DNA of 64,000 bases from Mustelus asterias. Taxonomy: Eukaryota. Below are positions 30,036 through 64,000 of the stretch, piece by piece. The stretch covers positions 868,001 through 932,000 of the forward strand of contig NW_027590140.1 of assembly GCF_964213995.1 (NCBI RefSeq), written 5' to 3'. Made by a program: the position numbers and the translations under genes. A model generated the notes under the pieces. It searched no databases and was not told the origin of the DNA. It was given only the letters and a program-made list of their open reading frames with translations. Position 1 is the first letter of the stretch. The number at the start of each line of letters is the position of its first letter.

Positions 30036-30041
30036 CGTGTC

Positions 30042-37185: not shown

Positions 37186-37997
37186 TTTATACATACTTTT
37201 AACCTCAGAGTGAGGAAAAGAACAATAATTCACGTTAATTGCTGAATATAAACTGAATACAGTATTTTACACAGTGTTGCATTTTCCCTTCCCCTCTACA
37301 CTTCTGTACACACTCAAATCTGACAGAATATCTTGAACTGGTTACCGTTTCCAGCTCTCACTGCTCAGAAAGCTTCTCTCAAACTTGCACATTCGGGCTT
37401 TTTCATTTGTTCATTCCTTAAACATGGCCGTCGCTAGCCATCATTCACTGCCCAACCCTAGTTGAGATGCAACCATACTGCTGTGGCTCTGGAGTCACAT
37501 GTAGGCCAGACCAGGTCAGGAGAGCAGATTTCCTTCCTAAGATACATTGGTGAATCATATGGGTTCCTTCATCAATCGAAAATGCTTTCACGGTCATCAA
37601 TGGATTCTCAATTCCAGATTTTTCCTATTGTATTCAAATCCCACCAGCTGTCCTGGCCGGTCCCCAGAATGTTAGCTGGTCGAGCGATAATTCGCCCCTC
37701 CTAAAGCATCTCCGAATGGAAAGTATTGGATCCTTGGTCTTCTGGTGGTCAGTTCCCTTCCCTCCCGTTGAATTCCTCCCTCTGGCCAGAGACATGGATT
37801 CATTTTAGCTGCACGTTCATAGAAGAAAGGGTATAACCGCTACACCACAGCAATACTACGGGATCGAAAGAAACAAAGAGACTTGTGTAGACTTGTAAAT
37901 GGTGCGGTGATGCTGTAGTTCTGGAACAGGTTTCGCAGAAATAGAATTGTGATCATTGACACCCTGGATTAGAATATCGTTAACAGCTGCTGCATCA

Positions 37998-38018
37998 GTC
38001 TCTGTGGTGCAATTGGTC

Positions 38019-38051
<33 letters not shown>

Positions 38052-38071
38052 GTCCAGACCACCCAGGGACG
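37998..38071 (+). pseudogene. tRNA-Asn(GTT), probable pseudogene
   Basis: Near-canonical Asn sequence, but the T-loop reads gtccaga instead of TTCGAnn (B box broken). Confidence 0.82.
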
Positions 38072-38907
38072 GAGCTTGTACTGTTTCCTTACCATGATCC
38101 TTCAAAAGCAAACAGTTGCGGGTTGGCAATGGGTCCGTGGGCGTCAATAAAAATAGCTCTCAAGTTTTACCGGCTGTACTGTCATCTGGTGTCAGTTTGA
38201 GTGGTGACGCTGCCGGAGAAATTCAGAGCTGGATTTCACCCAGAAAAGCAGCAAAGTTTAAAAACAGTGGCGCCCAACTTGGGGTTGCAACCCACGGTCC
38301 ATTAACGGTGATAAGTTAATGTTGTTCAGCAGAATTACCACAAGACGGTTTATCACAGGTTGATACTAACACTGCAGTAAAATTAAATGTAGTAGAAAAG
38401 GACGGCATGGTGGCACAGTGGTGAGCAATGATGCGTCACAGCGCCATTGGCTCAGGTTAAATTCCTCAAGTCACTGCCTGTGCGGAGTTTGCACCTTGTC
38501 TGCGTGGGTTTCCTCTGTGTGCTCCGGTTTCCTTTCCAAAGATGTGTGATTTCGGTTGCTTGGCCATGCTAAATTGACCCGCCTGTCAGCGGGATTATCA
38601 GGGTAAATATGTGGGTTTCCGGGAATAGGGCGTGGGTGGGATTGTTGTCAGTGCGGACCCGATGGGCCGAACGGTCTCCTTCTGTACTGTAGGGATTCTA
38701 CAAGAATGTTTCATTGTTCATTTTGACTGTAGGAACCAAAAGAGGCAATACAAGTATAAATTGCTGTGGGTAATTGACGAGCTTGTGGAATGGGGCGGAT
38801 TTTTCTCTCTGCTGTTGAAACTGGCAGCAATATCACTCATGCATTCGATCAAGAAGTAACTGCAACTCCACCTGCATCATGTCCTGCAAGAAAACAATAA
38901 ATCTTCA

Positions 38908-38978
38908 TTTTCTGACCGGGAATCGAACTCGGGCCGCAGTGGTGAAAACAACAAATCCTAACCATTGACCACCAGGGA
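38908..38978 (-). pseudogene. tRNA-Glu(TTC) pseudogene
   Basis: ttttctgaccgggaatcgaactcgggccgc..ggtgaaa...tcctaaccattgaccaccaggga; anticodon stem mismatched. Confidence 0.82.
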
Positions 38979-40758
38979 AACTGCCTGCAATGGTTTTAAT
39001 CTCGCCTATCTATGGTAACTTGGCGCATTTTTTTCAATTTCAGCGGGGTTTTTTTGTATTCCAGGGACAAGTCCGTCTGACAAGAGCCTCTTGCTATAAA
39101 CAAATTTCCTGCGGACGCTGGAATCTGAAACAAGATCAAAAAATGCCAGAAAATCTCAACTGGTCTGAAAGCCTCTGTGAAGAGAGAATAGAGCTAACGT
39201 TCAAAGTCAGGATGACCTTCGTCAGAGCTGAAGACAAAGAAACGTGGACGAGATTTATACTGTAATGGTGAGGGATATGGGTGAGGGGTGGGTGGCAAAG
39301 GTGTCACATATCAATCAAGAAAAACAAAAAGGCAAATTAAATGGTGGTGATCATGGCTGAGAAGGGAGCTGCAGGCTGCGCATTTAGAGATCAGAATGTG
39401 CAAATGGCAGAACAAAGGAAATGTAGGATTTGGCCCGAGTGGGACGGAGGGAGAGGGGGCAACAAGATGGAAAGTGAGATTTTAAATAAACAGTGCAAAA
39501 CATGGAAATCAAAAAAATAAATATAGATATAAAAGAAAAAATATTAATTAATAAAAATAAATTGCATAAAATTAAATAAAACAAAATTAATGGAAATGGG
39601 GTGAAGATGGAGGAAAGGAGATGCTCTGAAGTTGTTGAACTCAGTGTTAAGTCTGGAATGCAGTAAGATCCGAATCGTGACATCGGGGGATGTTCCTCCA
39701 GTTTGCATTGGAATGCCTCTTGATATCATTGTTTATTGCGCCTTCCGTCACCTTACTGATGATCAAGAGTAGACTGGTGGTAATGTGGGGCGTTGGATTT
39801 GACCTGATTTTTGTAAAGCGGGCAATCTTGGGCAAGTTGTAGCATTGGCGGTTGATGCCAGTGTTGTAGTTTAGGAACAGCTTAGTTGAAGGTGCGGCAA
39901 ATTCTGAAGCGCAATTCTTCAGCACCATTGCCAGAATATTTTTCAGAGCCGTAGCATTTGCTCTTTCCAATGCCTTCAAGTTTTTTTTTACTTGAAACGG
40001 TATGGAACAATGAAGTGTATCTGTTCTGTTCAGTGTCTACCCCACTCTGGCACTTTCTCTTTTCTCTCTGTAGATCTGTCTCAGTCCTTCCCTCTCTCAG
40101 TCTAACTATCCATTCCCCTTTTTTGTTTTTGTTCCATCTCTTCTCTCCCTGTTTATGTGGAACCAAATTTAACTGAATTGATTCCTGAAATGAGGCAGTA
40201 GTTGAGCTCGGAATTGATTTAAAGTGGGGGAGGAGACTCAATGGGACATGTGATCTAATCCAATTCCATTCATTTGGTTCATTGCCAATACCAGCTCTGA
40301 CAGCAATGACTTCTGCTGGTGTCCTTGATGGGAAATCTAAGACACTAAATTTAGGATATGATTTTTATGAAGGAGGGGGATCACATTCTCCCACTGTTCG
40401 ATTTTCACTTAAATTACTATAAACGTTATGAACAGCTTTGGTCAAACATGTGATTACTAAAATTTAATGCAGTGGAATGAATCATCATTCATTTTGATTC
40501 GAGGAACCAGCAGAGAGAATGTAAAGTGAGCAACTGGATAAAAGCAAATTACTGTGGATGCTGGAATCTGAAAGCAAATGTGTCACACAAAACTTTGACA
40601 AAGGGTCATCCCGACCGAAACGTCAGCTCTTTTCTCTTCGACAGATGCTGCCAGACACAATGTGATTTCCAGCGTTTTCTCTTTTTGTTAAAGTGAGCAA
40701 CCGACGGGCTTGTCGGACGAGTTTAGTTGCTCTCCCATTAAATCGGAGCTGCATCATG

Positions 40759-40832
40759 TACCCACGTTGGTATGTGGTCATCATGCTCGCTTTGCATCTC
40801 GAAAGCCCACGGTTCGAAACCAGGTAGAAACA
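40759..40832 (+). pseudogene. Val-body tRNA pseudogene (anticodon position reads TGC)
   Basis: 3' half gaaagcccacggttcgaaaccaggtagaaaca is Val-like; the acceptor stem is disrupted. Confidence 0.6.
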
Positions 40833-41504
40833 TTTCCCGATGGCTTTGTTTCAAAGTGGTTCGGATTACAGAGTTATCCTCGTTTATCACGAAACTTGAG
40901 TTGAACTATTGAGTTTTCTACGGTATTTCAAGCGGAAATAACTCAGTAAAGAATATAAAAGGGAAGGTCTGTGACAGTGAGTAAGACAACTGACACAAGG
41001 AATAACGGTCAAGGGCAACATTGGTTGGTTCCGGTTATGTTTAAACTTTGCTGCTTTTCTCAGTGTACTCCAGCTCGCTATTCCTCCCGCAGTGTCACCG
41101 CTGAAACTGAGTCTTTCTCCATCCCGCTTTGTAAATTTCACAATTACTGCTTTCTGAATGAAAACTGCTTGCAATCAGTCGAAGTCAAATAGTTTAGTAT
41201 TTCATTCATGGAGAGGTTTTCTTGTAATTTAGCCCGAGAATGTTATCCAGAAATGAGTGATATTTCTGTCAATGCAAACGGTTAAATCTGACCCATTACC
41301 ACCCAGGTTTTCCCTTGTATCACCACCTCTATCGGCAGCGTTTTGCATCATATCACTGTTTTTCACTATTTGTTTTTGTTCTTGACCTGTTGCACGTGTG
41401 ACATTTCCAACTCGGAAGTAAAAATGCAAATCTCACTCCACCGATTCTGGCAGAGCTGCTTTGGACCAGGCAGTATTGCTGGTTTGTCTATGAAAATCAT
41501 TAAA

Positions 41505-41571
41505 TCTTAACATATCGAACGCAGCCTGCGACCCTGAAAGCGCCGAATCCTAACCACGAGACCACCAGGAT
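41505..41571 (-). pseudogene. tRNA-Glu(TTC) remnant
   Basis: tgaaagcgccgaatcctaaccacgagaccaccagg is the reverse complement of the Glu 5' half. Confidence 0.7.
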
Positions 41572-41985
41572 CCCATCTGCCTGATTTTCCGAGAGACTGA
41601 TTACAGGAATATGCACAGCGCCAATTGTCCACAGTCACACACTCCTTTCTGTCTGTTAAGATTTGAAATTCTTCATATTTTCACATTGGCTTCCAGTGTG
41701 ATGAAAGCAGAGCTCTGATCAGCTGATGTTGTTCAGTAAAATTACCACAGTAATGTTGATATCTGTTCGATGCTAACATTGCTCTTTGAATGTGATCAGC
41801 TGCAGTGAAATTTAATGCAGTTGAAGGTAGCCTACTCATTTTTACAGGAGCAACCAGCCAGGGCAATGTAATGATTAATTGTTGTGGGTAATTGACGGGA
41901 TTGTACAACGGGACTGATATTTCTCCCTGCTGTTCAAATTGGCACAAGTATTGAGCGACGATTTTCAGATGGCTGCCGTGAGTTG

Positions 41986-42057
41986 GGTTTCGTGGTGTAA
42001 TGGTGAGCACTCTGGACTTTGAATCCAGCAATCCGAGTTCAAATCTCGGCGGAGCCT
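41986..42057 (+). tRNA. tRNA-Gln(TTG), probably intact
   Basis: 72 nt; acceptor GGTTTCG/CGGAGCC (two G-U pairs), anticodon stem CTGGA/TCCAG with loop CTTTGAA, T stem CCGAG/CTCGG with loop TTCAAAT. A and B boxes are intact. Confidence 0.85.
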
Positions 42058-43303
42058 TGCTTTACTTTGCAAAGGCAGATGATTGATTTGCTGAAGGGCG
42101 CTTCGTTTCAATTTCTCACAAAGCACGAATAGAGAGGACAATTTGTCAGCCAGTTCAACTGCTATTACAATGCACATTGCTGAGCCTCAGGCGCCAGATC
42201 CCTGCAACGTTAGTGTTTTTCATCTTTTCGCTGTCCTTCAACTCCTCTGTTGAAAAAAAGAAGTGGTTGGTGTCACACAATAACAATTCGACTGGAGTCT
42301 GGCAATTATTGAGCAAGTGTGTGTGCCTGAGCGTGTGTGTGCGTGAGCGTGTGTGGTGTGTGTGTGAGCGAGAAAGAGAGGGTGTGGGTGTGTGTGTGTG
42401 TTTTGGGATAAAAGTCTACTGTCTTCATTCAGATTGCTGTTGATTCCACGGGTAACTGGGTTTTGGTCTCTGCAGCTGAATTCCAGAAGTTCAGAATGAA
42501 TGCAGGAATTTGAGCCGTGTCGATTTTGGCAGGAAGAAATAGGAGAAACAGACCAATGTAAACAGTTGTTGAGGTAAAGGAGCGTGTGTGGAAGGAATGG
42601 AGCAAATTAGTGCTGATGTTGGAATCGGAAACAAGAAGGGAAAATGCTGAAAAATCTCAGCAAGCCTGGCAGCATCTGTGAGGAGAGAAGAGCTGAAGTT
42701 TCGCATTGAGATCAGCCTTGGTCAAAACTGGGGAAGGATTGGAGTTGCTCCGATAGAGAATACAAACGGGAACACAGGGTGAAAGGCTGTCTGCTGATAT
42801 AAGTAACAGGATCGCAAACATTGAGTCTGCAGTCACGGCCCAGGGGATGGATTGGGATTTTCTAACTGAGGCTCAAATCCTGTCATGTCGCTTCCCGTCA
42901 TTCCTCATTGTGACTTATTTTTATTGAAAGTAATTGAAAATAAAGAGATGATCAACTGATTGCAAGTCTCCCACATCAACGTCACTGAGAGTCTAGTGAT
43001 CAGGATCGGCGTCGTGACGCGGTTTCAATTCCCACTCACGGAGTGAATAACTTCTTGCTCAATTCTTCATTTAATGAAAACACGCCTCACAGGGTCTGTG
43101 AAGGGAGCAACATCTAATTCCTCCAGCTGGATGAACTTGCATCGGAGCTGGAAAAGTCAGAGATGTAACATTAACGATAAACTCTGAAGAAGAATCACAT
43201 GACACGCACAACATTCATGTCAGATACACACACATGTCAAATCATGTCACTTTCAAGTTGTGTCTTTTAACTTCCTGCTCTCCACTTCAGACATTTCCAC
43301 ATT

Positions 43304-44063
43304 CATAGAACATAGAACATAGAAAGCCACAGCACAAACAGGCCCTTCGGCCCACAAGTTGCGCCGATCACATCCCCACCTCTAGGCCTATCTATAGCCC
43401 TCAATCCCATTAAATCCCATGTACTCATCCAGAAGTCTCTTAAAAGACCCCAACGAGTTTGCCTCCACCACCACCGACGTCAGCCGATTCCACTCACCCA
43501 CCACCCTCTGAGTGAAAAACTTACCCCTGACATCTCCTCTGTACCTACCCCCCAGCACCTTAAACCTGTGTCCTCTCGTAGCAACCATTTCAGCCCTTGG
43601 AAATAGCCTCTGGGAGTCTACCCTATCCAGACCTCTCAACATCTTGTAAACCTCTATCAGGTCACCTCTCATCCTTCGTCTCTCCAGGGAGAAGAGACCA
43701 AGCTCCCTCAACCTATCCTCATAAGGCATGCCCCCCAATCCAGGCAACATCCTTGTAAATCTCCTCTGCACCCTTTCAATGGCTTCAACATCTTTCCTGT
43801 AATGAGGTGACCAGAACTGCGCGCAGTACTCCAAGTGGGGTCTAACCAGGGTCCTATAAAGCTGCAGCATTATCTCCCGACTCCTAAACTCAATCCCTCG
43901 ATTAATGAAGGCCAGTACGCCGTACGCCTTCTTGACCGCATCCTCCACTTGCGAGGCCGATTTAAGAGTCCTATGGACCCGGACCCCAAGGTCCTTCTGA
44001 TCCTCTACACTGCTAAGAATGGTACCCTTCATATTATACTGCTGCTTCATCCCATTGGATCTG
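43304..44063 (-). mobile_element. Young CR1 3' fragment
   Basis: Open minus ORF with DLGVRVH, LVRPHLEYC and RGDLIEVYK; (catagaa)n tail. Confidence 0.92.
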
Positions 44064-44148
44064 TCATCAAAAATTCCGACCTCAAACCCCTTCCTGTTCC
44101 TCAATCCACTGATAATGCTACACATATTGCGGGGGATTGGTAGCATTT

Positions 44149-44222
44149 GGCTCCGTAGCTCAGTGGTTAGAGCACTGGTCTTATAAACCAAGGATCGCGA
44201 GTTCAATATCTCGCTAGAGCAT
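44149..44222 (+). pseudogene. tRNA-Thr(TGT)-body pseudogene with a TAT anticodon
   Basis: ggctccgtagctcagtggttagagcactggtctTATaaacca...gcgagttc; two acceptor mismatches and an 8-nt T-loop. Confidence 0.8.
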
Positions 44223-48614: not shown

Positions 48615-49825
48615 GAACATAAGAACATAACATAAGAAATAGGAGCAGGAGTAGGCCATCTAGCCCCTCGAGCCCGCCCCGCCATTCAATAAGATCATGG
48701 CTGATCTGACGTGGATCAGTACCACTTACCCGCCTGATCCCCATAACCCTTAATTCCCTTACCGATCAGGAATCCATCCATCCGCGCTTTAAACATATTC
48801 AGCGAGGTAGCCTCCACCACCTCAGTGGGCAGAGAATTCCAGAGATTCACCACCCTCTGGGAGAAGAAGTTCCTCCTCAACTCTGTCTTAAACCGACCCC
48901 CCTTTATTTTGAGGCTGTGTCCTCTAGTTTTAACTTCCTTACTAAGTGGAAAGAATCTCTCCGCCTCCACCCTATCCAGCCCCCGCATTATCTTATAAGT
49001 CTCCATAAGATCCCCCCTCATCCTTCTAAACTCCAACGAGTACAAACCCAATCTCCTCAGCCTCTCCTCATAATCCAAACCCCTCATCTCCGGTATCACC
49101 CTGGTGAACCTTCTCTGCACTCCCTCCAATGCCAATATATCCTTCCTCATATAAGGGGACCAATACTGCACACAGTATTCCAGCTGCGGCCTCACCAATG
49201 CCCTGTACAGGTGCATCAAGACATCCCTGCTTTTATATTCTATCCCCCTCGCGATATAGGCCAACATCCCATTTGCCTTCTTGATCACCTGTTGTACCTG
49301 CAGACTGGGCTTTTGCGTCTCATGCACAAGGACCCCCAGGTCCCTTTGCACGGTAGCATGTTTTAATTTGTTTCCATTGAGATAGTAATCCCATTTGTTA
49401 TTATTTCCTCCAAAGTGTATAACCTCGCATTTATCAACGTTATACTCCATTTGCCATATCCTCGCCCACTCACTCAGCCTGTCCAAATCTCTCTGCAGAT
49501 CTTCTCCGTCCTCCACACGATTCACTTTTCCACTTATCTTTGTGTCGTCTGCAAACTTCGTTACCCTACACTCCGTCCCCTCTTCCAGATCATCTATATA
49601 AATGGTAAATAGTTGCGGCCCGAGTACCGATCCCTGCGGCACGCCACTAGTTACCTTCCTCCAACCGGAAAAACACCCATTTATTCCGACTCTTTGCTTC
49701 CTGTCGGATAGCCAGTCCCCAATCCACTTTAACACACTACCCCCAACTCCGTGTGCCCTAATCTTCTTCAGCAGCCTTTTATGGGGCACCTTATCAAACG
49801 CCTTTTGGAAATCCAAAAACACCGC
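48615..49825 (-). mobile_element. Young CR1 RT fragment
   Basis: 368-aa open ORF with DFQKAFDKVPH, SGVPQGSVLGP and KFADDTK; (cataagaa)n tail. Confidence 0.95.
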
Positions 49826-51952
49826 ATCCCAAGATCACAAGGTTGAGCTCCTACACCCAGCTTACAAGCAAAACTGAAGCGGGAGAATCCGTCAAAGAAT
49901 GGAATTGGATAATCTGCTTGGAGTCAGTGGACTGGTCAGTATTTAAAAACTCTGGGACTAGCCTGAACGAGTCGCCACTGCAGTAACTGACTTCATTCGT
50001 AAGCATGCAGAAGACTGTGTGCAAAAAAAGCAAATCCGCGTGTTCCCCAATCGGAAACCATGGATGAACAGGGATATCCAATGCTTGCTGAAGTCCAGGT
50101 CTGAGGCATTCAAGTCAGGCGACACTGACCTTTACAAGAAAGCCATATACGATTCAAGGAGATCCGTTAAAGATGCCAAAAGACGGTACTGCACCAAACT
50201 AGAGTTCCAGGCTAGCCACACAGATCCACGCCATGTATGACAAGGTCTGCAAGACATAACAGGATACAGGATGAAGACATGTAAAATCTCGGCTCCAATG
50301 CACTCTTCCCTGACGAGCTCAATGCATTCATGCCAGTTTTGAGCAAGAGGTCAGCGAGAGCATGCCCTCCACCCTGGAAGCTCTGGATGAACCTGTATCT
50401 GGCGTCACCATTGCAGATGTCAGAGCAACTTTCTCGGAAAGCGACTGGACCAGATGGGGTACCCAGACGAGCACTGAGATCCTGCGTGGATCAGCTGGCG
50501 GGGGTATTTGCAGACATTTTAACTTCTCTTTACAACAATCTGAGGTCCCTATCTGCTTGAAGAAGACGACCAGCATCCCGGTACCTAAGAAAAACCAAGC
50601 AGAGTGCCTCAATGACTATCGTCCCGTGGCTCTGACATCCATCATTATGAAGTGCTCTGAAAGGCTAGTCATGGCACGAATCAATTCCAGCTTCCCGGCC
50701 GCCGGGGATCCACTACAGTTTGCCGATCGCTGCAACAGGCCCACAGCTGACGCCATCTCCCTGGTCCTGCACTCATCCCTGGGACACCTCGATAACAAAG
50801 ATACCTATGTCAGACTTCGATTCATTGACTACAGCTCAGCCTTCAACATCATTATTCCCACGAAACCCATCTCCAAACTCGGTGGCCTGGGCCTGGGCTC
50901 CTCCCTCTGCAACTGGATCCTGTGCTTCCTAACTCACAGACCACAATCAGGAAGGGTAGGCAACAACACATTCTCCACGATCATCCTCAACACCGGTGCC
51001 CCACAAGACTGTGTTCTCAGCCCCTTACTATACTCCTTGTACACTTATGACTGTGTGGCGAAATTCCCCTCCAATTCAATTTTCAAGTTTCTGACGACAG
51101 TACCGTTGTGGGACAGATCTCAAACAATGCCGAGACAGAGTACAGGAATCAGATAGAGAATCTTGTGAGCTGATGCGGCGGCAATAATCTCTCCCTCAAT
51201 GTCAACAAAACGAAGGAGATTGTCATCCACTTCAGGAAGCGTAGAGGAGAACCTGACCCTGTCTACATCAACGGGGACGAAATAGAAATGGTCGAGAGCT
51301 TCAAGTTTTTAGGTGTCCAGATGACCAAAAAGCTGTCCTGCACCCGCCCCACCCCCCCCTCCCGCCGCACGCCGATCTTTCGTTAAGAAAGCCGACCAAC
51401 GCCTCCACTTTCTCAGAAGACGAAGGAAATTTGGCATGTCAGCTAAGACTCTCACCAGCTTTTACAGATGCACCATAGAAAATATTATTTCTGGTTGTAT
51501 CACAGCTTGGTATGGCTCCTGTTCTGCCCAAGAAACTACAAAAGGTTGTGAATATAGCTCAATCAATCACGCAAAGCAGCCCCTCATCCATTGACTCTGT
51601 CTACACTTCCCGCTGCCTCAGCAAAGCAGCCAGCATAATTAAGGACCCCACGCATCCCGGACATTCTCTCCTCCACCTTCTTCCGTCGGGAAAAACGATA
51701 CAAAAGTCTGTGGTCACGTACCAACCGACTCAATGATAGATTCTTCCCAGCTGCCGTCAGACTTTTTAATTGACATACCTTGCATTAAGTTGATCTTTCT
51801 CTCCACGCTAGCTATGACTGTAATACTACATTCTGCACTCTCTCGTTTCCTTCTCTATGAACGGTATGCTTTGTCTGTATAGCGCGCAAAGGACAATACT
51901 TTTCACTCTATGCTAATACTTGTGACAATAATAAATCAAATCAAATCAAATC
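49826..51952 (+). mobile_element. Rex1/Babar LINE fragment
   Basis: [38 protein letters not shown] and [17 protein letters not shown]; (aaatc)n tail. Confidence 0.92.
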
Positions 51953-52837
51953 AGTGAAAAAGCAGATAAATGGATGACTTCCAAGTCCATATCGCGAGCA
52001 AAGTGAACATTCTTCAATTTAGGAATTTGCCAGTTAAGAGCGCTGCAGCTGTGAGGATTTCTTAAAGCCAACATGTTCACAGAACCAATGCTGGATGTGA
52101 ACTCAGCAAGTTGAAGCTTAATTGCTCGATTTCAGATTTCACAAGATGTTGAGTAATATCCGACCTCACTTGCGATTGAATCATTCCTGACAGAACCAAC
52201 AGGAGATCCCGAATCAGCTCACGATTCCTTTGTCCTACATTTCATCCAACCAGCTCACAGTGTGTTTGTTCTTTAAAACATGACGTCAGAGGGAGGAGCA
52301 CGGAACTATTTGAATCTGTTCTCAGAACAATGCACTGGGCAGAAGGACATCAGAGAATAGGGAATAGGAACTGGAGTGAACGTTTAGTTCCTTCACTCGG
52401 GCCCGCTACCGCCGTTCAACAAGACCATGGTGGATTTACCGCACATACACCTTCCTGCATATCCCCATATTTCTTATTTGCCTTAATATCCATCAATCTA
52501 TGCCACCCTGCTTGAATAAACTACGTCTCTCTGATGGAGAATAGTAATGTTGGGTATTAAAAACAATTTTGTTTCTTTATCAGAGTTAATCTTTGCTTCG
52601 TTCACTTATGGGTAACAGTTCATGTTGTTTCCATAACAGCACCAGAGCTTCCCCGTTCTTGAAATGCTCGGAAACAGATATGATGACGGATTTTACAGAG
52701 AGCGACACACATTCAGCGCCGCAGAAATAAAGCATTCGAGCAAGTTGGCCTTTTTAAATGTGTTTCCGTTATATTAACAGTTCACAATCCAGGGTCACAG
52801 GTCTGATACAGTGAGACGAGGTGAGAGTGCCTTTGCT

Positions 52838-52876
52838 GTTTTTTGTACGGACTGACTGTGCCTCTGTAACAGTGTG
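52838..52876 (-). promoter_or_regulatory. 23-spacer recombination signal sequence
   Basis: CACACTG - 23 nt - ACAAAAAAC on the minus strand, abutting the V coding end. Confidence 0.9.
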
Positions 52877-53172
52877 GGGATCAGCGCACAGTGATACACG
52901 GCAGAGTCAGAGAGACAGACCCGGGTGATATTTAACGGAACCGTTTTCTTGTCTTGCTCCAAATCAGCAGAAAACCGGTCAAGGAAATCGGTAGAATTAT
53001 CCCCCCTTCCCTTTGCCGTAACTCCTCAGTAAATATCTCAGAGCTTTCCCAAGACACTGGATGTACCAGAAGGGAGTATTGCCTGCATATTTTGTTTCGT
53101 AACTGCAGTTCAGTATTACCGTCTGTCCTTCCTCAACCGTAATTCAGGCGGCTCCTGGGAAACTGACTCCTG

Positions 53173-53497
53173 TAGGTTTATTTGGTAGCAAAAGCCACAC
53201 AAGCTTTCGGAGCTCCAAGCCTCTTTTTCAGGTGAGTGGGAATTCTGTTCACAAACAGGGCATATAAAGACACAGACTCAATTTACATGAATAATGGTTG
53301 CATTATTCATGTAAATTGAGTCTGTGTCTTTATATGCCCTGTTTGTGAACAGAATTCCCACTCACCTGAAGAAGGGGCTTGGAGCTCCGAAAGCTTGTGT
53401 GGCTTTTGCTACCAAATAAACCTGTTGGACTTTAACCTGGTGTTGTTAAACTTCTTACTGTGTTCACCCCAGTCCAACGCCGGCATCTCCACATCAT
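53173..53497. mobile_element. Penelope-derived fold-back insertion with hammerhead motif, inside a V exon
   Basis: 12-bp TSD aactgactcctg (53161-53172 and 53498-53509); inverted arms ~53174-53295 and ~53301-53422. Confidence 0.88.
53358..53402 (+). ncRNA. Minimal type I hammerhead ribozyme motif
   Basis: cac-CTGAAGA-a-ggggc/gctcc (stem II)-GAAA-gc-TT-gtg, with palindromic AGCT as helix III. Confidence 0.6.
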
Positions 53498-54379
53498 AAC
53501 TGACTCCTGGCCATTGGTTCCTGTAACATGATATGGAATGTGTGAGAAATCTGTGAGTGAATATAATCCATGAAACGCACACTGTGAGGATTTGAGCTCA
53601 GACTCACGGGGCAGAATGGCCATTATTATCAGTAAAGCACACAGGTAACACATGGCCCCTGATTGCACAGTAAACAACGACATTATTTAAAATATGTTGC
53701 TGCATGGAGTCTTATATCACAGAGTGACCTCAGATCAGAGGCGGCTCCTCTTATCGGGACATTGAAGGGCGTTTCTTCGTGCTGCAATTGGCTGGTTTCT
53801 CAGCTCTGAAGTCAGCTGAGGGCCAGTCACGGTTAGTTGTGGGTATAATGGGTGACTCTCCAATCACATTCCATCCCTGGCTGTGTCTATCTCTTTCACA
53901 TTCTCTTGCTCTATCTCACATTGTCAGCCATTTGTCACTTTCTCGGTTTGAATCCCTTTCCTCTGAACTGCGTGTCCATCCCTTTCGCCCTAATGAAGGT
54001 AGAAGGTGAAATAAATATATTAACGTAAGTCTCAATGCGCCGATGGGCCTTTTCTGCGTTGTATACTTCTCTGATTCTATCACTATATGACTCAATTCAC
54101 AGGGATAGATTGTCAGCTGATCCAGAAATTTTACATGCACAGATTGATTAAGTTATTCATCCAGGAGATCTGCGGGTCTGTGCGAATGGGATCGGGAAAT
54201 GATTGAATTCCATCCTAGAGTAATATGTAATCTTTACCAACAGTGACAATCATTGACTTCAACGAAAGAAAGCCTCTCAGATGGCGCTGCATTGATGCCT
54301 TCATTATCTGTACATATTATATGAAATTCAACCCCATGCGTTGTCCTGATCTCAAACTCTTGATTATCAATCAGCACCT

Positions 54380-54418
54380 GGATTTTGTATGAGGCCCGCG
54401 GAAGGCTCATTCACTGTG
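54380..54418 (-). promoter_or_regulatory. 23-spacer RSS
   Basis: CACAGTG - 23 nt - ACAAAATCC on the minus strand. Confidence 0.92.
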
Positions 54419-54884
54419 GGTCCCAGTGCGCAGTCGTACACGGCGCTGTCTGTCATCTCCAAATTTTCACACCTCCGGTTGAGGTTCCCGCTGAGGCGTT
54501 AAAAGCCGGGAGCTGCCTTCTTATTCCCTTAAGTATCGGCTCTAAGCAGATACTTAGGAGCTTGCTGTGGATACAGGCGATAGCAGCACTGGCCATATGC
54601 TCTCGCTGAACTCGGAACAGAGTACGTGCAGGGAATTGCTGATTCTTCACCCTCTGCTGCTCCAACTCCTGTTTCTGACTGGTACACTGAGACTCCATCA
54701 TTCATCTTTGAAAAGGAACAGCACACAAACGACGGTAGAAGGAGTAACATGAGGAGGTTGAATACCCAGAGATAGAAATGATTTAAATATAAGGAAATGG
54801 GGAATTTAGAGCAAAGGTTCAAATTGACCGACCTGTGATTCGGACAGAAACCAGAGGCAGACATGGTTGCAGTCTGAAATCCAG
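54419..54884 (-). pseudogene. TCR alpha/delta-type V pseudogene (decayed leader ~54884-54833; V exon ~54707-54419)
   Basis: GVSVYQSE..AEGEESAIPCTYS..CCYRLYPQQAPKYLL..*..*..LEMTDSAVYDCALG. The conserved Trp is lost, there are two in-frame stops, and the leader lacks an ATG. Confidence 0.88.
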
Positions 54885-55799
54885 AAACAGAGACAGTGAC
54901 TGCACTAGATCTGCAATTGACATTTGCACCAGCCGGAAACAAATGCGATTTTTTCTCCCCACCCATTTTCATGTCTGCAAACAATGGCGTTCTCGAGAAG
55001 GGGATCGTGACCTCTAATAATCGGAGAGCGCCCTCCTGTGGACACCATGACCATATGTTGGAAACAGATACACACGTGCACAGATATACACGTATAGAGA
55101 CCACATTTGTCAGGGACAAAGGAGGACAGCACAATAAGTTTGCTTCCGTGGGTGCCGTGTAGAAATAAATGACCTGTGCACACATCGTGCATGTTCACAA
55201 GCAACTCATTGAGAGTGCAGCGTTGTTACACTGAAGAAAATAAGGCGGATTCCATGTGTTGAAGTAAATCCATTAAATTCTGCGCGTTCAATCCGAAAGT
55301 TTCAACGGAGAGGAGGCACAAGATGAAAAGCTTGTGACCAGCGTAGAAATATTTTGACTAATTTCGAGAATGAAACTTTTGTTTTATAAAATCTTCTGGC
55401 ATTCATATTTGGTGGATGTATTTACGTTCACAATCGTGTCGATCTGTCTATTCCACTATATATGCACTTGTATTTATCAATCTGTTGTTGCACCAATTCT
55501 CTCTGTATATCGGGACCGACGTGTCTATGTCTTTAGGTGTTTCACGCATCCCGACAAGCTCTCAAAAGCACACCACTCTATCTCTGAAATTGCCAGCTTA
55601 TCTATTCATCCATTTATCCATCCATTGACAACTGATGTCTGCTTTGCTTCAGGCGCCTGAATACCACCGAATCAATAAAAAAATAAAAATAACAGCGTAT
55701 GTTTAGAAAATGATATGAAAGCGCGTGGAGGGGCTTGGTTTTTCCCTTTATTTATCTCAGCCTCTGAATTGTTTGTTGGAACATTTGTTAGGAACAGTA

Positions 55800-56490
55800 A
55801 CATAAAGAGGAATCTGGACGTGCAGGTCCACAGTTCCCTAAAAGTGGTAACACAGGTGGCCAAGTTGCTGAAGGAGGCATATGGCATGTTTGCCTTCATC
55901 AGCCAGGGAATTGAGTACATGAGTTGGAAAATCATGTTCCAGCTACATAAACCTTGGTTCGGCCGCATTTCGAGTATTACGTGCAGTTTTGGTCCTCACA
56001 CAATCAGAAGGACATGGAAGCTTTGGAGAGAGTGCAAATAAGGTTCACCAGGATGTTGCCTGGTCTCGGGGGGTGTTGGCAATGATGAGAGGTTGAATAA
56101 ACTAAGATTGTTTTCACTGGAAAGGTGGAGGCTGAGCGGAGACCTGATAAACTCGACAAAATTATGAGAGGAATAGGCAGGGTGGATAGTCGGGTTTTCT
56201 TTACTTCTGGTGGAATTGCGAATTGCAAAGGGTCAGAGGTTCTAGGTGAGATGGGGAAAGTTCAAGGGAGATGTGAGGGGAAGGTTTTTCACACAGAGAG
56301 TGATGGGCGCCTGGAACGCGCTGCCAGAGAACATGGTGGAAGTGGGCACATGAGCAACATTTAACAGGAATCTGAATGGCTGCATGGATAGGGAGGGAAT
56401 AGAAGGATAAGGCAGAAGGTTTTGTTTTCGTTAGGGCATCATGATTGGGACATTCGTGGAGGGCCGAAGGTTCTGTTTCTGTGCTGTACT
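55800..56490 (+). mobile_element. Old CR1 3' fragment
   Basis: RNLDVQVHSSLKV..EAYGMFAFI; aggttcaccaggatgttgcc. Confidence 0.8.
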
Positions 56491-56631
56491 TTTCTTCGTT
56501 TTCTGCTGTTCTTGAAATAACCGTACACTTTTGTTTGCAGATGCTTAATAATATGTCCAAATGCAGTTGCAAGAATTGCATATTTTCAGTGAAAGACGGA
56601 AATAAGTTGCACGTACTTATAGCCTTTCAAA

Positions 56632-56900
56632 GTTAAAGTTTATTTATTAGTCACAAGTAAGGCTTACATTAACACTACAATGAAGTTACTGTTAAGATTC
56701 CCTAGTCGCCACACTCTGGTGCCTTTTCGGGTCAATGCACCTTACCAGCACATCTTTCAGACTGTGGGAGACAACCAGAGTACCCGGTGGAAACCGAAGC
56801 AGGCATGGGGCGAATATGCAAACTCCACACAGACAGTACCCAAGCCGGAATCGAGCCCGGGTCCCTGAGCGGCGGAGTTAACCACTCTGCCAGCATGCCA
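56632..56900 (-). mobile_element. HE1-like SINE
   Basis: Same family pattern as 19730-20035. Confidence 0.75.
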
Positions 56901-57628
56901 CAAGTTCATTGCACAACAATGTTCTTTTGAGCTGCATATGTTATATGCAATATATAACATATTACGCTGTTGTATAATGTATAACAGTTATACATTATAA
57001 CTGTTATAATGTGTAGAATATAAGCTGTAAGAGCCATTCGGTCCATCGATTCTGCGCTGTCATTGAATAATATCATGACTGATCTGATGTGATAATCCTT
57101 AACACTATTTTCCTGCCTTATCCCTATGAAATTTGATTCACTTACTGATTAAAATCTGTTTACCTCAGCCCTGAATATACTTAAGGACCAAACCTTCTCA
57201 AACTTCAGCGTAAATAATTCCACAAATTACTGTCCTATCAGAAGAAATTCCTCCTCATATCTGTCTTCGATGGGCACCCTCTTAATGTGAGATCATGTTC
57301 TCTGGTCCTGGGCTCTCCCTCAAGGTGAATCAACCTCAATGCATCTACCCTTTCAAATCCCTTATTAGGAATCGGATATGTTAATTAGACATTAAACTGC
57401 GTCTCATCTTAATTTGAAATCAACCTCCTCAGGACAATTAGAGTTTCGTTTGTCTTTCGGGTCTATTCAAGATCCAATATCCAGTTGGATATATGTTAGC
57501 AGGTATATATGCTGCTCTCTACTCAATGGGATGGGGTGTTAACCTTCATATTTCCTGGAAATAAACATGCACTTATAAAGGAGCATTAGAGCACTCAGCG
57601 CCATTGCCCACGGTTCTAGATGATTTAC

Positions 57629-57735
57629 TGCAGGAAGTGACATCAGATAAGCTCCGCAGGCATTGTATTTTTGCAGGAAGTGACATCGACCCAGTCCAAA
57701 CTCTGAGGATGTATTGTCCTGTAGGCGGTTACATC
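57629..57735 (+). promoter_or_regulatory. V-gene promoter: repeated Ets + CRE/decamer module
   Basis: TGCAGGAAGTGACATC at 57629 and 57672, and degenerate TGTAGGCGGTTACATC at 57720. The first copy contains AGTGACATCA followed by GATAA. The repeats lie 70-180 bp upstream of the leader ATG. Confidence 0.7.
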
Positions 57736-57806
57736 TGCTGTTATTTATTGAATATTCTGCAGCTTTCCCAGATATGAAAACTCCTCAGAATTCCGGAGCG
57801 GCAGCA

Positions 57807-57852
57807 ATGCGTCTCCCGGTTCTCGCTTTGGTGTGGATGACATTGATTGTGG
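57807..57852 (+). CDS. Leader exon of an intact TCR alpha/delta-type V segment
   Basis: MRLPVLALVWMTLIV followed by donor G|gtaaga (phase 1), in frame with 58470. Confidence 0.88.
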
Positions 57853-58469
57853 GTAAGAAGATCAAAACGTGAAAAACGTTTGAAAAGCAAAGAGCTCATT
57901 TTAATCTTGTGTCTAAACTTGGTTAGACCCAACTATGAGTGTTAGGACAATAATATAAATACAAAGGTGAAAACAGAAAATGCGATTTGTCAGGATGAAA
58001 TCAGATTTCAGGTTAAAAAAATACTATCTGAAATTATTGCATATATTATTGCATATGTTCTTATCGCAAGGAAAGGAAGCAATGCGTCAGCCTAGTGGAG
58101 GTTTTTGAAAAGCTGAAGATCTTTCAGAAATTAATCGTGCGAAGGATCTTCCCCCAAATTTGGACGATTTTAAAATGAGGAATCTAAAATTTATCAATGA
58201 GCCCGAGAGAGATTTCAGGAAAAACTGCCCAACCCATACTCTCATGTGGAAATCACTATCAGAGAGTGGGTTGTTTTTATTAATGCAATTAAAGGGAAAA
58301 TAAATGAAAAGATTATGGGCAAAGGAGTGGGAGGAAATTTTCGGTGCGTGAGATGAAGAGGATTTCAGGATGTTCTCTGAAGTACTAACGAGCCCACCGA
58401 AGATTTATTCTAGGCTTTCGTTCTATCTGACTTAATAAAGAACTGACCACCATTTTTTCCCCGTCCCAG

Positions 58470-58773
58470 ATCTGAGCGATGAAGATTCTGTTACTCAGCG
58501 GGAATCCTCACTCACACAGACAGAGGGAGAAGTTGTCACTTTAACCTGCACCTATACCGGCAATAATTTTTATTTGTTCTGGTACCGTCAGTATCAAGGC
58601 AGACAGCCCGAGTTTGCAGTCCGGAGATATACCGACGGCCGTTCCGAATTGAAGGCGAATTTCGCTCAGAGCCGGTTTTCTGATTCAGTGCAGCAGTCAG
58701 TGAAGTTGTACCGATTGACCATCCCGGAGCTGGTGCTGTCTGACACCGCGGTCTATTACTGTGCACTCAGACT
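58470..58773 (+). CDS. TCR alpha/delta-type V exon, intact
   Basis: Acceptor ttttttccccgtcccag|. DLSDEDSVTQRESSLTQTEGEVVTLTCTYTGNNFYLFWYRQYQGRQPEF...RFSDSV...LVLSDTAVYYCALR; both Cys, WYRQ and YYC are present with no stops. Confidence 0.95.
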
Positions 58774-58812
58774 CACAGTGATGGAAACGAGTGAAATCCT
58801 CGTACAAAAACT
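58774..58812 (+). promoter_or_regulatory. 23-spacer RSS (near consensus)
   Basis: CACAGTG - 23 nt - ACAAAAACT. Confidence 0.95.
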
Positions 58813-59369
58813 GCCACAGGTTTCTGATTCACAGCTGTTGTCTGTTGGGAACTGTTTACAACAGCGGATCTGACACTGTCACGTGAATACATTCCCGTGA
58901 GCGCAGATATCGAACGCAATCAAACGGAAAACTTCCTCCCACTCCTTTGCCCATAATCTTTTCATTTAGTTTCCCTTAATTACATTTATAATAATCACCC
59001 CAACTCTCCCTGTGATCGTGATTTCCACATTAGTGATACAATTTAAAACAATTCACATTGAATCCTGACTCTGTCCGATGGTTGCATTCATTGTGTGAGG
59101 GCGGAATTTGCTGTTCACCATCCACATTAACAAAATAAACTCCAGCCTTTTTCCCAAAACTAGTTCTTTCTGTTTAGCTGCTTCACTGTACAAAGAGAAG
59201 CTAGATAATATGATATGATCATAATATATAGACTGATTAAATATTCCACAATGTTAAAACACTTGAAGTCGGATATTATTACAAAGGATAGTGACTATAT
59301 TTATACTACAACAGATCTTGTCTCGGTTGCTCCTGCAATAAAGTAGTATGAGCATATCTATGACTATTT

Positions 59370-60290
59370 CAATCCATTGAGAGGGTGAAGAGGCGATTTA
59401 CCGGGGTGCAGCTTGAGCTGGAGGTTCTGAGCTATGAGGAAAGATTGAATGGGCTGGGGCTGTTTTCCTTGGAGCAGCGAAGTTTGAGAGGGGACCATGA
59501 GATCATGAAGGACATAGGTACGGAGGATTGGAGCGCACTTTTTTCCCATCAGTAGAGGGGTCAGTATGCAGGGGCATATATTTAAGCCAAGTGGTAGAAC
59601 GGATTCGAGAAGAAGCTTTTCCACGGAGAGATGGTGGGAGTCTGGAACTCAATTAACCCTCCATGGCAATGACCCAAGCGATAGAATATAGGATTAGCGT
59701 CATCAGATCTTTGTTGATCAGCATGGACAGAAGCCAAATTGCCCCCTTCTGTGCTGTAAATATCTCTGAATATAAGAATCCGTCGTCATTTCCCTGGGCA
59801 GCAGCATGGGAAACACGGAAAGCTTTTACTACGCAGGAGAATATCTCGTGACTGGGCAGACTGGGTATAAATGTTGAGCTGAATGGCCTCCTTCTGTTTT
59901 GTAAGTGTCCATGTAAGTCTGAATCTAGGCTTTCATTGCATATCGGTCAGGGGACGAGGAGGTGATCTAGTTGAAGCATACAATTCACAAAGAGCTTCAC
60001 AGGGCAGTTTTTGACAGATGCTTTCCCCTGCCTGTGAAATTCTGTGCTCACATTCTCTAAATTCAATGATCATGAGATGAATTGCATAGGAATTCTTCAG
60101 TCAAAGCGTTATGAATGATGGGAATCTTCCATCTCCACGAGTTCTTTATACCAGATCGTTTGAATATTGGGTGCAAAGAGAGTTTAGGAATTTGGGGAGA
60201 GGGTGAGAAGGTGGAGTTCACGTAGAAGACCGGCGTGGAGGAGCAGTCTGGAAGGGTGAAACCGTCCAAAACTGCTCTCATTGTTTAAAT
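59370..60290 (+). mobile_element. Old CR1 3' fragments
   Basis: Degenerate CR1 3' motifs (gctatgaggaaagattg, ttttccttggagcag, gaatggcctccttctg). Confidence 0.65.
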
Positions 60291-60614
60291 AATGCACGGT
60301 TACTAATGAAAAAAAAATGAAATTTCACGATAAGTGTTGTCTGCAAAATTAAACAGGAAATTCAACATTGTGAACAATGGTCTCGCCAGTTTCCTCAATC
60401 ATCAGCAAAGTAATGGATGTCTTTGACAGTACGAGCAGGTGGCACTTTATTTGCAATAATTTGCGCACTGATGCTCTGTTTGGGTTCCATCACAGTCACT
60501 CGGCTTTCGATCTCATTGTAATTTTGGTCCATATAAAAGCGTAAGAGTTGAAATCCAGATGTGAGGGGAGAGCGATTTCACTTAACTTAAAGGCAGCCGT
60601 TGATCGTGTGGCAT

Positions 60615-60930
60615 TACGGATGGCACAATGACACAGTGGTTGGTGCTGCTGCCTCACAGCACCAGGGACCAAAGTTCAATTCCAGGAGTTTGCACGTTCT
60701 CCCTGAGTCTGTGTGGGTTTCCTCCGGGTGCTCCGGTTCCCTCTCAAAGTTTAAATACGTGCGGGTTAGTTTAATTGCCATCCTAATTTGCCCCGCAGTG
60801 TCAGGGGAACTGGCAGAGTAAACATGTATGGTTACGTTGATACGGCCTGAGTGGGATTGTTGCTGTTGCAGACTTGATGGCCGAATAGCCTCATTCTGCA
60901 CTATAGGGATTCTATGATTCTATGATTCTA
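60615..60930 (+). mobile_element. HE1-like SINE
   Basis: cacagtggttggtgctgctgcctcacagc head and (gattctat)n tail. Confidence 0.8.
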
Positions 60931-60989
60931 AGAATCAAAATTGGTATCAATCGGAATCATGAGCCTATATCCAGTTCAAATGAAGATGG

Positions 60990-61830
60990 AGGCAAACAAA
61001 CCCTGCCTGTCGCAGAATTTTGTTGCAAGAGTTCCTCAAGGCAGCGTTCGTGACCCAAAGATATTCACCTGCTTCATCAATGACCTTCCTTCCATTATAA
61101 GATTAGGCATCGTTGCCGACGATTCCACAATGCTCTGAAGCATTCCGGACTTCTGAGAAAAATAAATCGTCGATTTTGGCATGTAGCGATAGCAATGGTC
61201 GATAGGTGGCAGATATCATTCGCGCCACAAAAAATGTCAATCAATGATCATTTCCAACAAGAGGGTTTCTAATATTCTACGATTTCGTGTTAACTACATT
61301 TCCATCGCTGAATCCCCCACCATCTACACTCTGGAAGCTAACATTGATCGACCTTTAAAACACTGGCTTCAAGAACATGTCAGGCATTGAGAATTTCCCC
61401 GACTCCCCAAAGCCTGACCGCTAACTGCAAAGCAGTCAAGAACGCGATGACATTGTTTCTACCTACCTGGACAACTGAATCTCCAGCAATCCCCAAATGC
61501 TCGACATCAGCCACAGCTCCTTGATTGCTACCCCGCCTACCACCTTAAACATTCACTCCTTCCATTAAAGGCACACGATGATAGCAGATAGCAGCATTAT
61601 GCAAGGTGGAATGCAGCAATTCGCCAACAGCACTTCGACAGCACATTACAAACCCGCGGCCCCTACCGCCCAGAAAGAGAAACACAACAGCGGCACGGGA
61701 ACAACATCATCTACAAATTCCCGAACAAGAGTGCAGCTGTATAGAATGGCAACTCACTCATTCCTGTTTAAGGTCAACTAGGGATGAGCAACACATTCTA
61801 GCATCATCTGAGATGATGAAATCCTTTAGA
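60990..61830 (+). mobile_element. Old CR1/L2-group LINE RT fragment
   Basis: RVPQGSVRDPKIFTCFINDLPS..VADDST. Confidence 0.65.
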
Positions 61831-62143
61831 TGTGTGAACACAAATTTAACATTTGAGGGGGAGTCGCCGTTCCCAAAAAAATTAAACTAAGGGAATTTAA
61901 GAGTACAAAATACCCTGGAATAAAACCGAAAGCTCGAGCTATGGGCACAATATAACCAGACAGTGTTTCATATTCACGCTGTTCTTTCCTTCCGAAGTCA
62001 CGAACACAAAATGAGTAATGTCTGTCACTCAGCACGGGTAACTGGCTCAGCACCCACCGGCCTCACAGTGCTCCCAGCGATACAGAAAGTGAGATGTCTC
62101 CTGAAGATTACCCCATTCCCATTTTACATTGCGGAGAGTGGCA

Positions 62144-62602
62144 ATGCAGCTGCTCAGCACCTGGGTTGTGTGGGTAGGATGCATGACAGGTAATTCATGA
62201 TTAAGTGCATTTCATCTTTTTTCTGATTTATCAAGCATGGTTCAAATCTTACCAACCTCTCGCCTGATCTGTTTCAGTGTGACTGCCATTTTTCCATATC
62301 TGATTCATGCGGATTCTGTCACCCAGCTTCTCTCCTCAGATGCTCAGGCAGAAGGAGAAGCGGTGGCAATGACGTGTACCTATGACATCACAAAGAGGAG
62401 TTACAGATTATATGGATACTGAGAGCGCCCAGAGTCTCAGCCTGAGTTAATCGTGTGGAAAAGGTCTGGGGCTCTAAATATCAAGCAGATTTTGCTATAA
62501 TCCGTTTGGCTGCTGAACTCCACACCGGAACTAAATTCATCATCTTAATCATCTCGTGTCTGCAGCTGACTGAGCCGGCGACTATTAATGCACTTTCAAT
62601 CT
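62144..62602 (+). pseudogene. TCR alpha/delta-type V pseudogene (leader 62144-62189; V exon 62298-62602)
   Basis: Leader MQLLSTWVVWVGCMT with donor G|gtaatt; acceptor mutated to CAT. V reads DSVTQLLSSDAQAEGEAVAMTCTY..LYGY*ERPESQPEL..QADFA, with a stop and frameshifts. Confidence 0.9.
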
Positions 62603-62641
62603 CACAGTAATAGAATACAGTCTTATCGCCGTCCAGAAACC
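62603..62641 (+). promoter_or_regulatory. Degenerate 23-spacer RSS
   Basis: CACAGTA - 23 nt - CCAGAAACC. Confidence 0.8.
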
Positions 62642-62919
62642 ATAAGTGGCAGCGCTTGCCTGCTGCGGGTTGTTTAGAATCGGGGGAAGATACAGCTTCA
62701 ATGAGCGGCGCCGCCGTCGGACACAGCGAGAGGAAACCAGATTAACCTCCGATCAAACTGTCACTCAACCGTTACGAGGAGCGGCTGAGAAAACAAACTG
62801 GCGAACCAATGGGACAGAGGCACAACACAGAATCTTATTTGAAATCATACACTCTCTTTCCAAGCCTCAACAAACCTCGGTCTTGTGAGATCTGTCAGGG
62901 GTGAATACAAGCATCCAAA

Positions 62920-63235
62920 CAGAGTGGCACAGTGGTTAGCACTGCTGCCTCAGAGCACCAGGCTTATGGGTTCGATTCCAGACTTGGGTCTCTGTCTGTG
63001 TGGCGATTGTACATTCTCACAGTGCCTGAGCGGGTTTCCTCCAAGTGCTCCGGTTTCCTCCCACAGTCCAAAAATCCGTGGGTTAGGTTAATTGGCCATG
63101 CTGAATTGCTCTTTATTGCCTTGGCTGTGTCGGCTAAAGGGCTGTTTGAGGTCGTGGAATAAGGCCCAAGGTGGGATTGTTGTCGGTGCAGACTTGATGG
63201 GCCGAATGGTCTCCTGCACAGTCGGGTTTCTGTGA
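62920..63235 (+). mobile_element. HE1-like SINE
   Basis: gtggcacagtggttagcactgctgcctc...ggttcgattcca head. Confidence 0.8.
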
Positions 63236-64000
63236 TTCATTCCCGGCTGGGCTGCAGACAAATTCCCTGCAGGGGGAATGGATCGGCTGTTGCAGCGGTG
63301 GCAATGGAAGCCTGATCCGTCAATGAGCAACGGTTCAAAATGTAAAATAAGTGCAGGCTTTCGAATCAAATTTTTTGCGCTCACAAATCATTTACACTAC
63401 ATCTGTGCAGCAATAACTCGCACAAATTTCTAGATTAATTTGAGAACTCCGTATGTACAGTAATATCCATCATGTTGGCATGACCACTGCAACAGATCAA
63501 TCACTAAATTACATGAGAATGAGGAGGGTCATTTGTTAATCTTAACTCACCAATTCTGGAATTCCCAAGAGTCTCTATTATTTCCTTAAGGGTAACTGTC
63601 CATTTTGTTGCTTTTCAAATGTGTCACTTCGAATAGATTCCATTGCAAGTGATGACCACGATCAGTGTAACGAATTGTCTCCTATCTGAGCCCCAATTTT
63701 ACCTTTTACTCGACTGGACCTATGTAAATTTACCGCCCCTACAGCTGAATTTAAGGTAGAACTCAGGCTCAACCCTTTCCAGACCCAATGCTACTTTGGC
63801 TATTTAGGCTTTGTTTAGGTATTTATGTTTTCTTACTTCCTGCAACGCTGCTTCGATATGATTCGTTTCTTTTTCCCCTTTACACCTGTTTCTCTAATTT
63901 TTCCTCCAACCCCTCTGACATACCGTTCTCTCCCCCGACCAATGCATTCCTATGTTCCCAAGCTTCCTCATACTCTCTCCCTCGCAAAATCTGTCCGTAT

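Follow-up and report, generated by a model that had tools for sequence, protein, structure and literature searches.

Reviews set the T cell receptor (TCR) genes of cartilaginous fish, described as translocons (PMC6795676), against the miniclusters of their immunoglobulin (Ig) genes, and place TCR-delta (TRD) in or beside TCR-alpha (TRA) in nearly all jawed vertebrates. Exceptions to this linkage are the separation of the two in newts and the extra TRD or TRA/D loci of galliforms, flounder, carp, and alligator (PMC12698447). In the great white shark, TCR alpha/delta variable (V) segments of either orientation are interspersed with IgM clusters, NAR-TCR Vs, and Ig heavy chain (IgH)-like Vs at 8.2–17.1 Mb of chromosome 27 (PMC12227049, Flajnik et al. 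2025); that study calls TCR alpha/delta a translocon, and its Table S1 has one TCR-delta constant entry each for stingray and catshark, within ~80 kb of TCR-alpha. Marsupial TCR-mu is a separate chain with eight tandem clusters and a fully joined VDJ (PMC2275272), and shark Ig miniclusters carry germ cell joins made by RAG (Lee et al. 2000, PMC2193156). Here we describe a stretch of 64,000 nucleotides from Mustelus asterias (NW_027590140.1, positions 868,001 to 932,000 of the forward strand; hereafter, the window) that carries four TCR alpha/delta V segments, V1 to V4. Contigs of this 3.68-Gb genome (G000; 5313 contigs) are denoted by C and a number, the window being G000:C108:868001-932000. 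The four Vs form the left end of a V island of mixed orientation in the elasmobranch antigen-receptor complex, and the reading that we favor, at a probability of roughly 0.78, is that V3, the intact member, is joined by RAG to a dispersed TCR-delta diversity-joining-constant (D-J-C) cassette or to a J-alpha/C-alpha unit.

Each of the four segments has a recombination signal sequence with a 23-bp spacer (23-RSS) directly behind a V-type reading frame (4/4), at the positions given in a preliminary description of this DNA, which had recognized four leader, V, and 23-RSS units of TCR alpha/delta type. Matches to a 23-RSS with at most three mismatches number five in the window, against 0.87 expected, and none of 100 shuffles reached five. 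V3, on the plus strand, has a 46-nt leader exon (57807..57852, ATG at 57807), a GT/AG intron, a V exon with an open frame (58470..58773; Pfam V-set, 53 bits), and an RSS one mismatch from consensus (58774..58812). It shows the complete set of V-segment hallmarks, namely, a split leader, both cysteines and the tryptophan, and no J-like end, of which V1, V2, and V4 are decayed versions. Upstream of V3 lies an ETS/CRE-like motif (57633..57645, plus strand) with a near copy ~40 nt further and no other match in the window, which may resemble the TCR V promoter decamer; no Ig octamer was found near any of the four Vs. In addition, a 79-nt inverted repeat (82% identity; 58267-58345 and 58924-59002) brackets the V3 exon and its RSS.

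The remaining three segments are pseudogenes, so that the preliminary assignment of two dead Vs to the minus strand and of one intact and one dead V to the plus strand holds. V4 (plus strand) retains a leader exon (62144..62189), an exon that has lost its splice acceptor and carries a stop and frameshifts (62298..62602; 49% identical to a whale shark V in P0165), and an RSS with three mismatches (62603..62641). V2 (minus strand) comprises an RSS (54380..54418), an exon with a lost acceptor, a 20-bp deletion, loss of the conserved tryptophan, and two stops near 54530 and 54500 (54419..54707), and a 32-nt leader exon with a 14-bp deletion relative to its paralogue (54833..54864). In V1 (minus strand), the RSS (52838..52876) adjoins the 3' part of the exon (52877..53172), which is 91.7% identical to a paralogue on C122 and has a 1-bp deletion near 53140 and a 1-bp insertion near 53000. 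A 325-bp repeat containing a 123-nt palindrome (53173..53497) is inserted in framework 1; it sits between the two copies of a 12-bp direct repeat (53161-53172 and 53498-53509) and is absent from the V1 paralogue. Beyond it follow the 5' part of the exon behind an intact splice acceptor (53498..53520) and a 46-nt leader exon with an ATG and a GT donor (53608..53653). Kin of the inserted repeat occur in the window at 864-973, 9384-10081, and 47059-47135; this repeat family is characterized by long palindromes (123-nt, 344-nt arms) and leaves a 12-bp target duplication.

The near-consensus RSSs of the two dead inverted Vs, to which the preliminary description drew attention, are real, but their retention is what overall divergence would predict. 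The V1 RSS differs from its closest paralogue at 1/16 positions against a background of 8% (P=0.61), and the V2 RSS differs from the family RSS at 2/16 against ~21% (P=0.32). Selection on the RSSs of dead Vs was thus rejected. A scan of both strands of the window found no J, as had been noted before. Three weak 12-RSS-like matches were present (three mismatches each; 6/100 shuffles reach three), and those at 30443 and 31250 were discarded as J signals, there being no J motif behind them.

That all four units are shark TCR alpha/delta V segments follows from their structure and their relatives. The best single-domain Protein Data Bank (PDB) matches of V3 are TCR alpha/delta Vs, and in pairwise scoring against eight references (no tree) it reached 99 and 92 bits with shark TCR-type Vs, compared with 60 for a heavy-chain V (VH)-like and 40 for a NAR V. 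Relatives at 73-76% identity occur in bamboo shark and cloudy catshark, and V3 is 53% and 51% identical to Vs in gene models spliced to C-delta. Within G000, the best 150 of 1813 candidate places for V3 fall at 7.2-19.2 Mb of C71 and on over 60 contigs (tallied by hand). For V1 and V2, the best 40 of 206 and 208 candidates, respectively, were scored; among these, V2-family matches begin at C71:5.05 Mb. V1 and V2 occur as a pair across copies, often facing a V3-family gene.

The window's own contig, C108, is 1.408 Mb long, and ~424 of its 1408 kb were read, including 384 kb around the window (C108:828-1212 kb). Within the latter interval, ~20 V loci or fragments in both orientations lie at 921-1089 kb, ~16 of them within 160 kb past the window's four and including a NAR-TCR V-J unit, and there is no V in the 92 kb ahead of V1. 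The only J-like segments there are two, both of NAR type. The V-J unit consists of a NAR V with a long 3' end, whose 12-RSS and the 23-RSS of a J face each other without an intervening D (C108:956800-957730), and a decayed facing unit lies 10 kb from it at C108:946320. Further upstream, ~400 kb from the window, is an IgH cluster (VH and IgH C exons at C108:507-523 kb) with another TCR V, all within 507-531 kb. C108 therefore shows the interleaving of TCR Vs with IgH clusters and NAR-TCR Vs (NAR V at 957 kb) described for the published elasmobranch complex (PMC12227049), so that the four Vs as such are ordinary, plain members of it. We infer that C108 and other unplaced contigs belong to the complex on C71.

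Both earlier interpretations of the cluster need revision in this light. The notion of an orphan V cluster, as stated, does not fit the ~16 additional V loci or fragments, the NAR-TCR V-J unit, and the IgH cluster of C108, and that of an inverted block at the distal edge of a single alpha/delta locus does not fit the mixed orientation throughout and on D-J-C targets in both orientations. Since cassettes in G000 occur in both orientations, a V here cannot be called "inverted" in any fixed sense. In addition, the V-bearing end of the window (48616..64000) is duplicated on G000:C138 at 99.6% identity over 15.4 kb, as part of a shared block of ~72 kb in total at 95-99% identity. This block begins at a 1.2-kb repeat that has 99%-identical copies elsewhere.

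The constant portion of a TCR model from sawshark (P0076), used as the query with 70/70 candidates scored, matched 19 Ig-domain and 19 transmembrane exons on 17 contigs of G000. All 19 genes have three open exons with AG/GT sites and together encode 15 distinct proteins; three lie on C71 (7.14, 11.04, and 12.27 Mb; 96.2-97.4% alike). Every cassette has three to six J-delta segments within 22 kb (19/19, two spurious low-complexity J rows on C181 and C154 being left out); a strict J pattern gave no matches despite the many Js and was too tight. A D with 12/23 RSS precedes J1 in intact form in 11/18 readable cassettes and is joined in the other 7/18. A DNA search with D-J1 found 19 places, which are 18 cassettes and a D-J1-J2 piece on C973 without a C in the 40 kb read. 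Just upstream of D-delta at C71:7097667-7102668 are an unusual V and two IgH-like Vs, presumably of TAILV type; on C973, too, this pair stands ahead of the partial cassette.

The name of P0076 in its database suggested that these were TCR-alpha genes. This assignment was ruled out by the PDB comparison, in which the sawshark query matched human TCR-delta at E 4e-11 and TCR-alpha at about 1e-3; by the reading CLASDFSP, which fits the trdc signature CLXXXFXP (PMC10322711); by 58% identity to a catshark protein named like the Table S1 row 'IgWVTCRD' (PMC12227049); and by the upstream D. On these matches, the 19 constant genes are TCR-delta, whereas a single delta block is usual among vertebrates. 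Over an 8.4-kb core, 5/171 pairs reach 99.5% identity and the lowest stands at 88%; if copies that may be allelic are paired, 14 loci remain at a 99.5% cut and 10 at 97%, and the cassette DNA analyzed contained no N. A V3-family V lies 27-35 kb downstream in 13/19 cassettes (among the best 150 of 1813 V3 matches) and is followed by an inverted V2-family V in at least five.

TCR-alpha presented a different picture. A second constant exon with the trac signature was found in two places, C546 and C71:18.42 Mb (42/42 candidates scored), and the two C-alpha exons are only 74% identical in protein. J-alpha segments number ~83 at C546 (C546:137570-242100) and 23 at C71 (C71:18370833-18431900). The standard 5'-trdc-(traj)n-trac-3' layout is absent at C71: zinc-finger genes and repeats occupy the 136 kb of gap-free sequence ahead of the first J-alpha, which contain no V, D, or C-delta, and the nearest C-delta on C71 is 6 Mb from the J-alpha array. 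At C546, the sequence ahead of the first J-alpha is interrupted by a scaffold gap at a distance of 8 kb. Pfam PF09291 identified no TCR-alpha constant exon (0/17 candidates). Large arrays of C1-set exons at C13:60.06-61.42 Mb and C8:50.17-51.09 Mb are probably light-chain or major histocompatibility complex clusters.

Among the 18 cassettes with a readable first J, V is fused to D in six and an IgM-type VH-D is fused to D-delta in one (C138), which together represent five independent joining events (C850, C71:11.02 Mb, C138, C401, and one shared by C436, C119, and C96). The junctions look like RAG coding joints. At C850, V and D are trimmed by 3 nt each; the V is 99.5% like that of C154 and the D-J-C 99.8% like that of C71:12.27 Mb, and this resemblance to different cassettes points to joining across cassettes. 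The joint at C71:11.02 Mb is trimmed with a 1-nt overlap. At C138, an IgH D that is whole up to the heptamer position is followed by a trimmed D-delta, and the upstream 4.8 kb are 99.1% like the IgM cluster at C71:7.06 Mb. This fusion (C138:217400-218500) stands upstream of four J-delta segments and an intact C-delta and is a candidate for an inherited Ig/TCR-delta hybrid gene. In contigs from four runs aligned to the region (32/294 records listed), the ends of IgH D and D-delta that are not joined stand out as loose ends; these contigs neither confirm nor deny the joint and give no usable copy number. In each of C436, C119, and C96, an unrearranged NAR V and D lie upstream of a supporting V joined to D-delta.

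Joins of this kind could be somatic T cell rearrangements built into contigs, an explanation that bears on the joints and leaves the number of cassettes untouched. Trans-rearrangement of IgH to TCR-delta is a common somatic event in sharks (PMC12227049), and near-identical cassettes without a join exist for those at C850 (99.94%) and C71:11.04 Mb (99.65%), so that either a somatic origin or a segregating allele could account for these two. The junction of C436, C119, and C96, however, is identical in all three with flanks 97-98% alike, which is impossible from somatic events; the join would predate their duplication and is likely inherited. Likewise, among the 19, the closest partners of the cassettes on C138 and C401 reach no more than 97.7% and 98.3%, respectively, and for the V joined at C71:11.02 Mb no copy exceeds 98% among the best 40 of 150 candidates. 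A somatic origin of one or more of the five joints is a possibility to be taken seriously, although we consider it doubtful. Formation by RAG in germ cells would appear well supported for one joint, likely for two, and possible for the remaining two.

A V with a 23-RSS joins the 12-RSS of D-delta or J-alpha under the 12/23 rule. V3 could accordingly recombine with either, by deletion or by inversion depending on the target, and may be used in T cells, while the cassettes themselves may have spread by segmental duplication. C138 illustrates the arrangement: its V3 copy is found upstream of the cassette's D at a distance of 251 kb and points the same way, ~16 V loci or fragments separating the two (342 kb read), and its V1 and V2 copies are oriented opposite to the cassette. 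On that contig, the V3 copy would be placed for deletional joining and V1 and V2 for inversional joining.

Several observations weigh against RAG joining of V3 to a dispersed cassette or alpha unit. In the C138 cassette, the RSS of J1 is poor, with five mismatches. C108 is unplaced relative to any cassette. V3 may serve alpha, delta, or both, and the C-delta-spliced models that resemble it can be chimeric. Some of the 19 C-delta genes are probably alleles, and the cassette evidence comes from one assembly; eight further C-delta protein matches are models from one houndshark species, and such annotated proteins repeating the cassettes probably derive from this assembly or one very close to it and do not count as independent. 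Finally, genome searches with constant exons and with D-J1 gave no C-delta, C-alpha, or D-J1 match on C108.

This last absence invites an alternative in which the C108 island is an orphon, carried by segmental duplication to a place without a reachable D-J-C, with V3 intact because the copy is young. The 99.6% identity of the block to C138, its start at a young repeat, and the loss of three of the four Vs accord with such an origin. We nonetheless regard it as unlikely, given that C108 resembles C71 in also having an IgH cluster, with more Vs, at 507-531 kb; that in published sharks as much as 9 Mb can separate Vs from the TCR constant gene listed (PMC12227049); and that the C138 copy has a cassette within range. 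The preliminary description had held that D, J, or C on the same scaffold would exclude an orphan; none of TCR type was found on C108, and the contig of the near-identical copy, C138, has a D-J-C.

A more conventional possibility is that the C-delta copies are an assembly artefact, from uncollapsed haplotypes or mis-joins, and that the window is the far edge of a single ordinary alpha/delta translocon. The fragmentation of the assembly into 5313 contigs, the five C-delta pairs at least 99.5% alike, and the one C-delta per species in other sharks (two in one species) would be consistent with this. Two haplotypes yield two copies, though, and not 19; identities range down to 88%, with differing J sets, insertions, and upstream genes; three copies lie on a single scaffold; C-alpha from the same region gave only two matches; and even pairing all copies at or above 97% as alleles leaves 10 loci. 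An artefact on this scale therefore seems very improbable. That the units are non-rearranging Ig-superfamily genes can be dismissed: the top PDB rows of V3 are indeed multi-domain antibody constructs, which rank there through summed scores, but each V ends at a 23-RSS without a J-like G strand, TCR alpha/delta Vs give the best single-domain rows, and NAR and VH-like Vs score far lower than TCR-type Vs, so that RSS and family evidence already refute the idea.

What appears new, from one assembly and from sequence comparison, is a multi-cassette TCR-delta around ordinary Vs. Relative to the published elasmobranch complex (PMC12227049), G000 differs in its 19 C-delta cassettes, its two C-alpha units, and a J-alpha array on C71 that is preceded by 136 kb without C-delta. 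As in newts and the other exceptions, TRD stands apart from TRA and TRA is duplicated; those exceptions comprise one or two loci (PMC12698447), whereas G000 has at least 10, three or more of them on a scaffold that also holds a TRA unit. The cassettes resemble shark Ig miniclusters in having many (D)-J-C copies, some pre-joined with RAG-type junctions (PMC2193156), and differ in being TCR-delta, in having three to six Js each, and in at least one joint across cassettes and one from IgH to TCR-delta. Similarly, the C436, C119, and C96 units are TRD-derived and clustered, with two V domains and a germline-joined supporting V, as is TCR-mu (PMC2275272). Unlike TCR-mu, these units use the TCR-delta constant gene proper, are joined no further than V-D, and belong to cassettes scattered through an open field of Vs; with neither a constant gene of their own nor a joined VDJ, these units resemble TCR-mu in layout and are not members of it.

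Searches of other species found one C-delta protein each in catshark, whale shark, and sawshark and two in sevengill shark (56 and 141 candidates), a count limited by annotation and word matching. No report of a multi-copy shark TCR-delta was found in the literature searched, whose coverage excludes some primary nurse-shark papers and the PDF supplement of PMC12227049; the nurse-shark locus is described as unassembled (PMC5931798). We lean, by a slight degree, toward TCR-delta being a multi-cluster system in this shark, with at least 10 working cassettes in a >14-Mb V field off TCR-alpha, repeated germ cell V-D joins by RAG, NAR-TCR clusters paralleling TCR-mu, and an inherited IgM VH-D/TCR-delta hybrid. 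If true, at least 10 TCR-delta cassettes would make the change from translocon to cluster visible in a TCR, would offer a living model for the origin of TCR-mu-like and Ig/TCR hybrid genes via germline RAG joins, and would explain how Vs spread over megabases reach a partner. Furthermore, the question of how a gamma/delta T cell keeps one receptor among many delta loci that alpha rearrangement cannot delete would become testable, because the 15 constant-region variants tag transcripts by cassette.

Features of the window outside the V segments are minor. The "tRNA array" next to which the Vs had been placed consists of five ARAGORN calls (Asn, Asn, SeC-like, Gln, Ile; 32074..44222), of which three pass Rfam; they are spread loosely over 12 kb and end 8.6 kb short of V1. 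Because these calls lie outside the duplicated V block, a functional tie between Vs and tRNAs was rejected. Around the tRNA-Asn calls (30000-40000), local duplications occur at spacings of 3.85 kb and 5.9-7.1 kb with 77-89% identity. Elsewhere, a perfect inverted repeat of 160 nt with a 5-nt loop was found at 25191-25515, and fragmented reverse transcriptase/integrase-like frames of long terminal repeat retrotransposon type were seen by eye at 1-3600 (plus strand). An intronless open frame of 304 amino acids at 12466-13377 (plus strand) matches Pfam 7tm_1 and is a candidate rhodopsin-family receptor.

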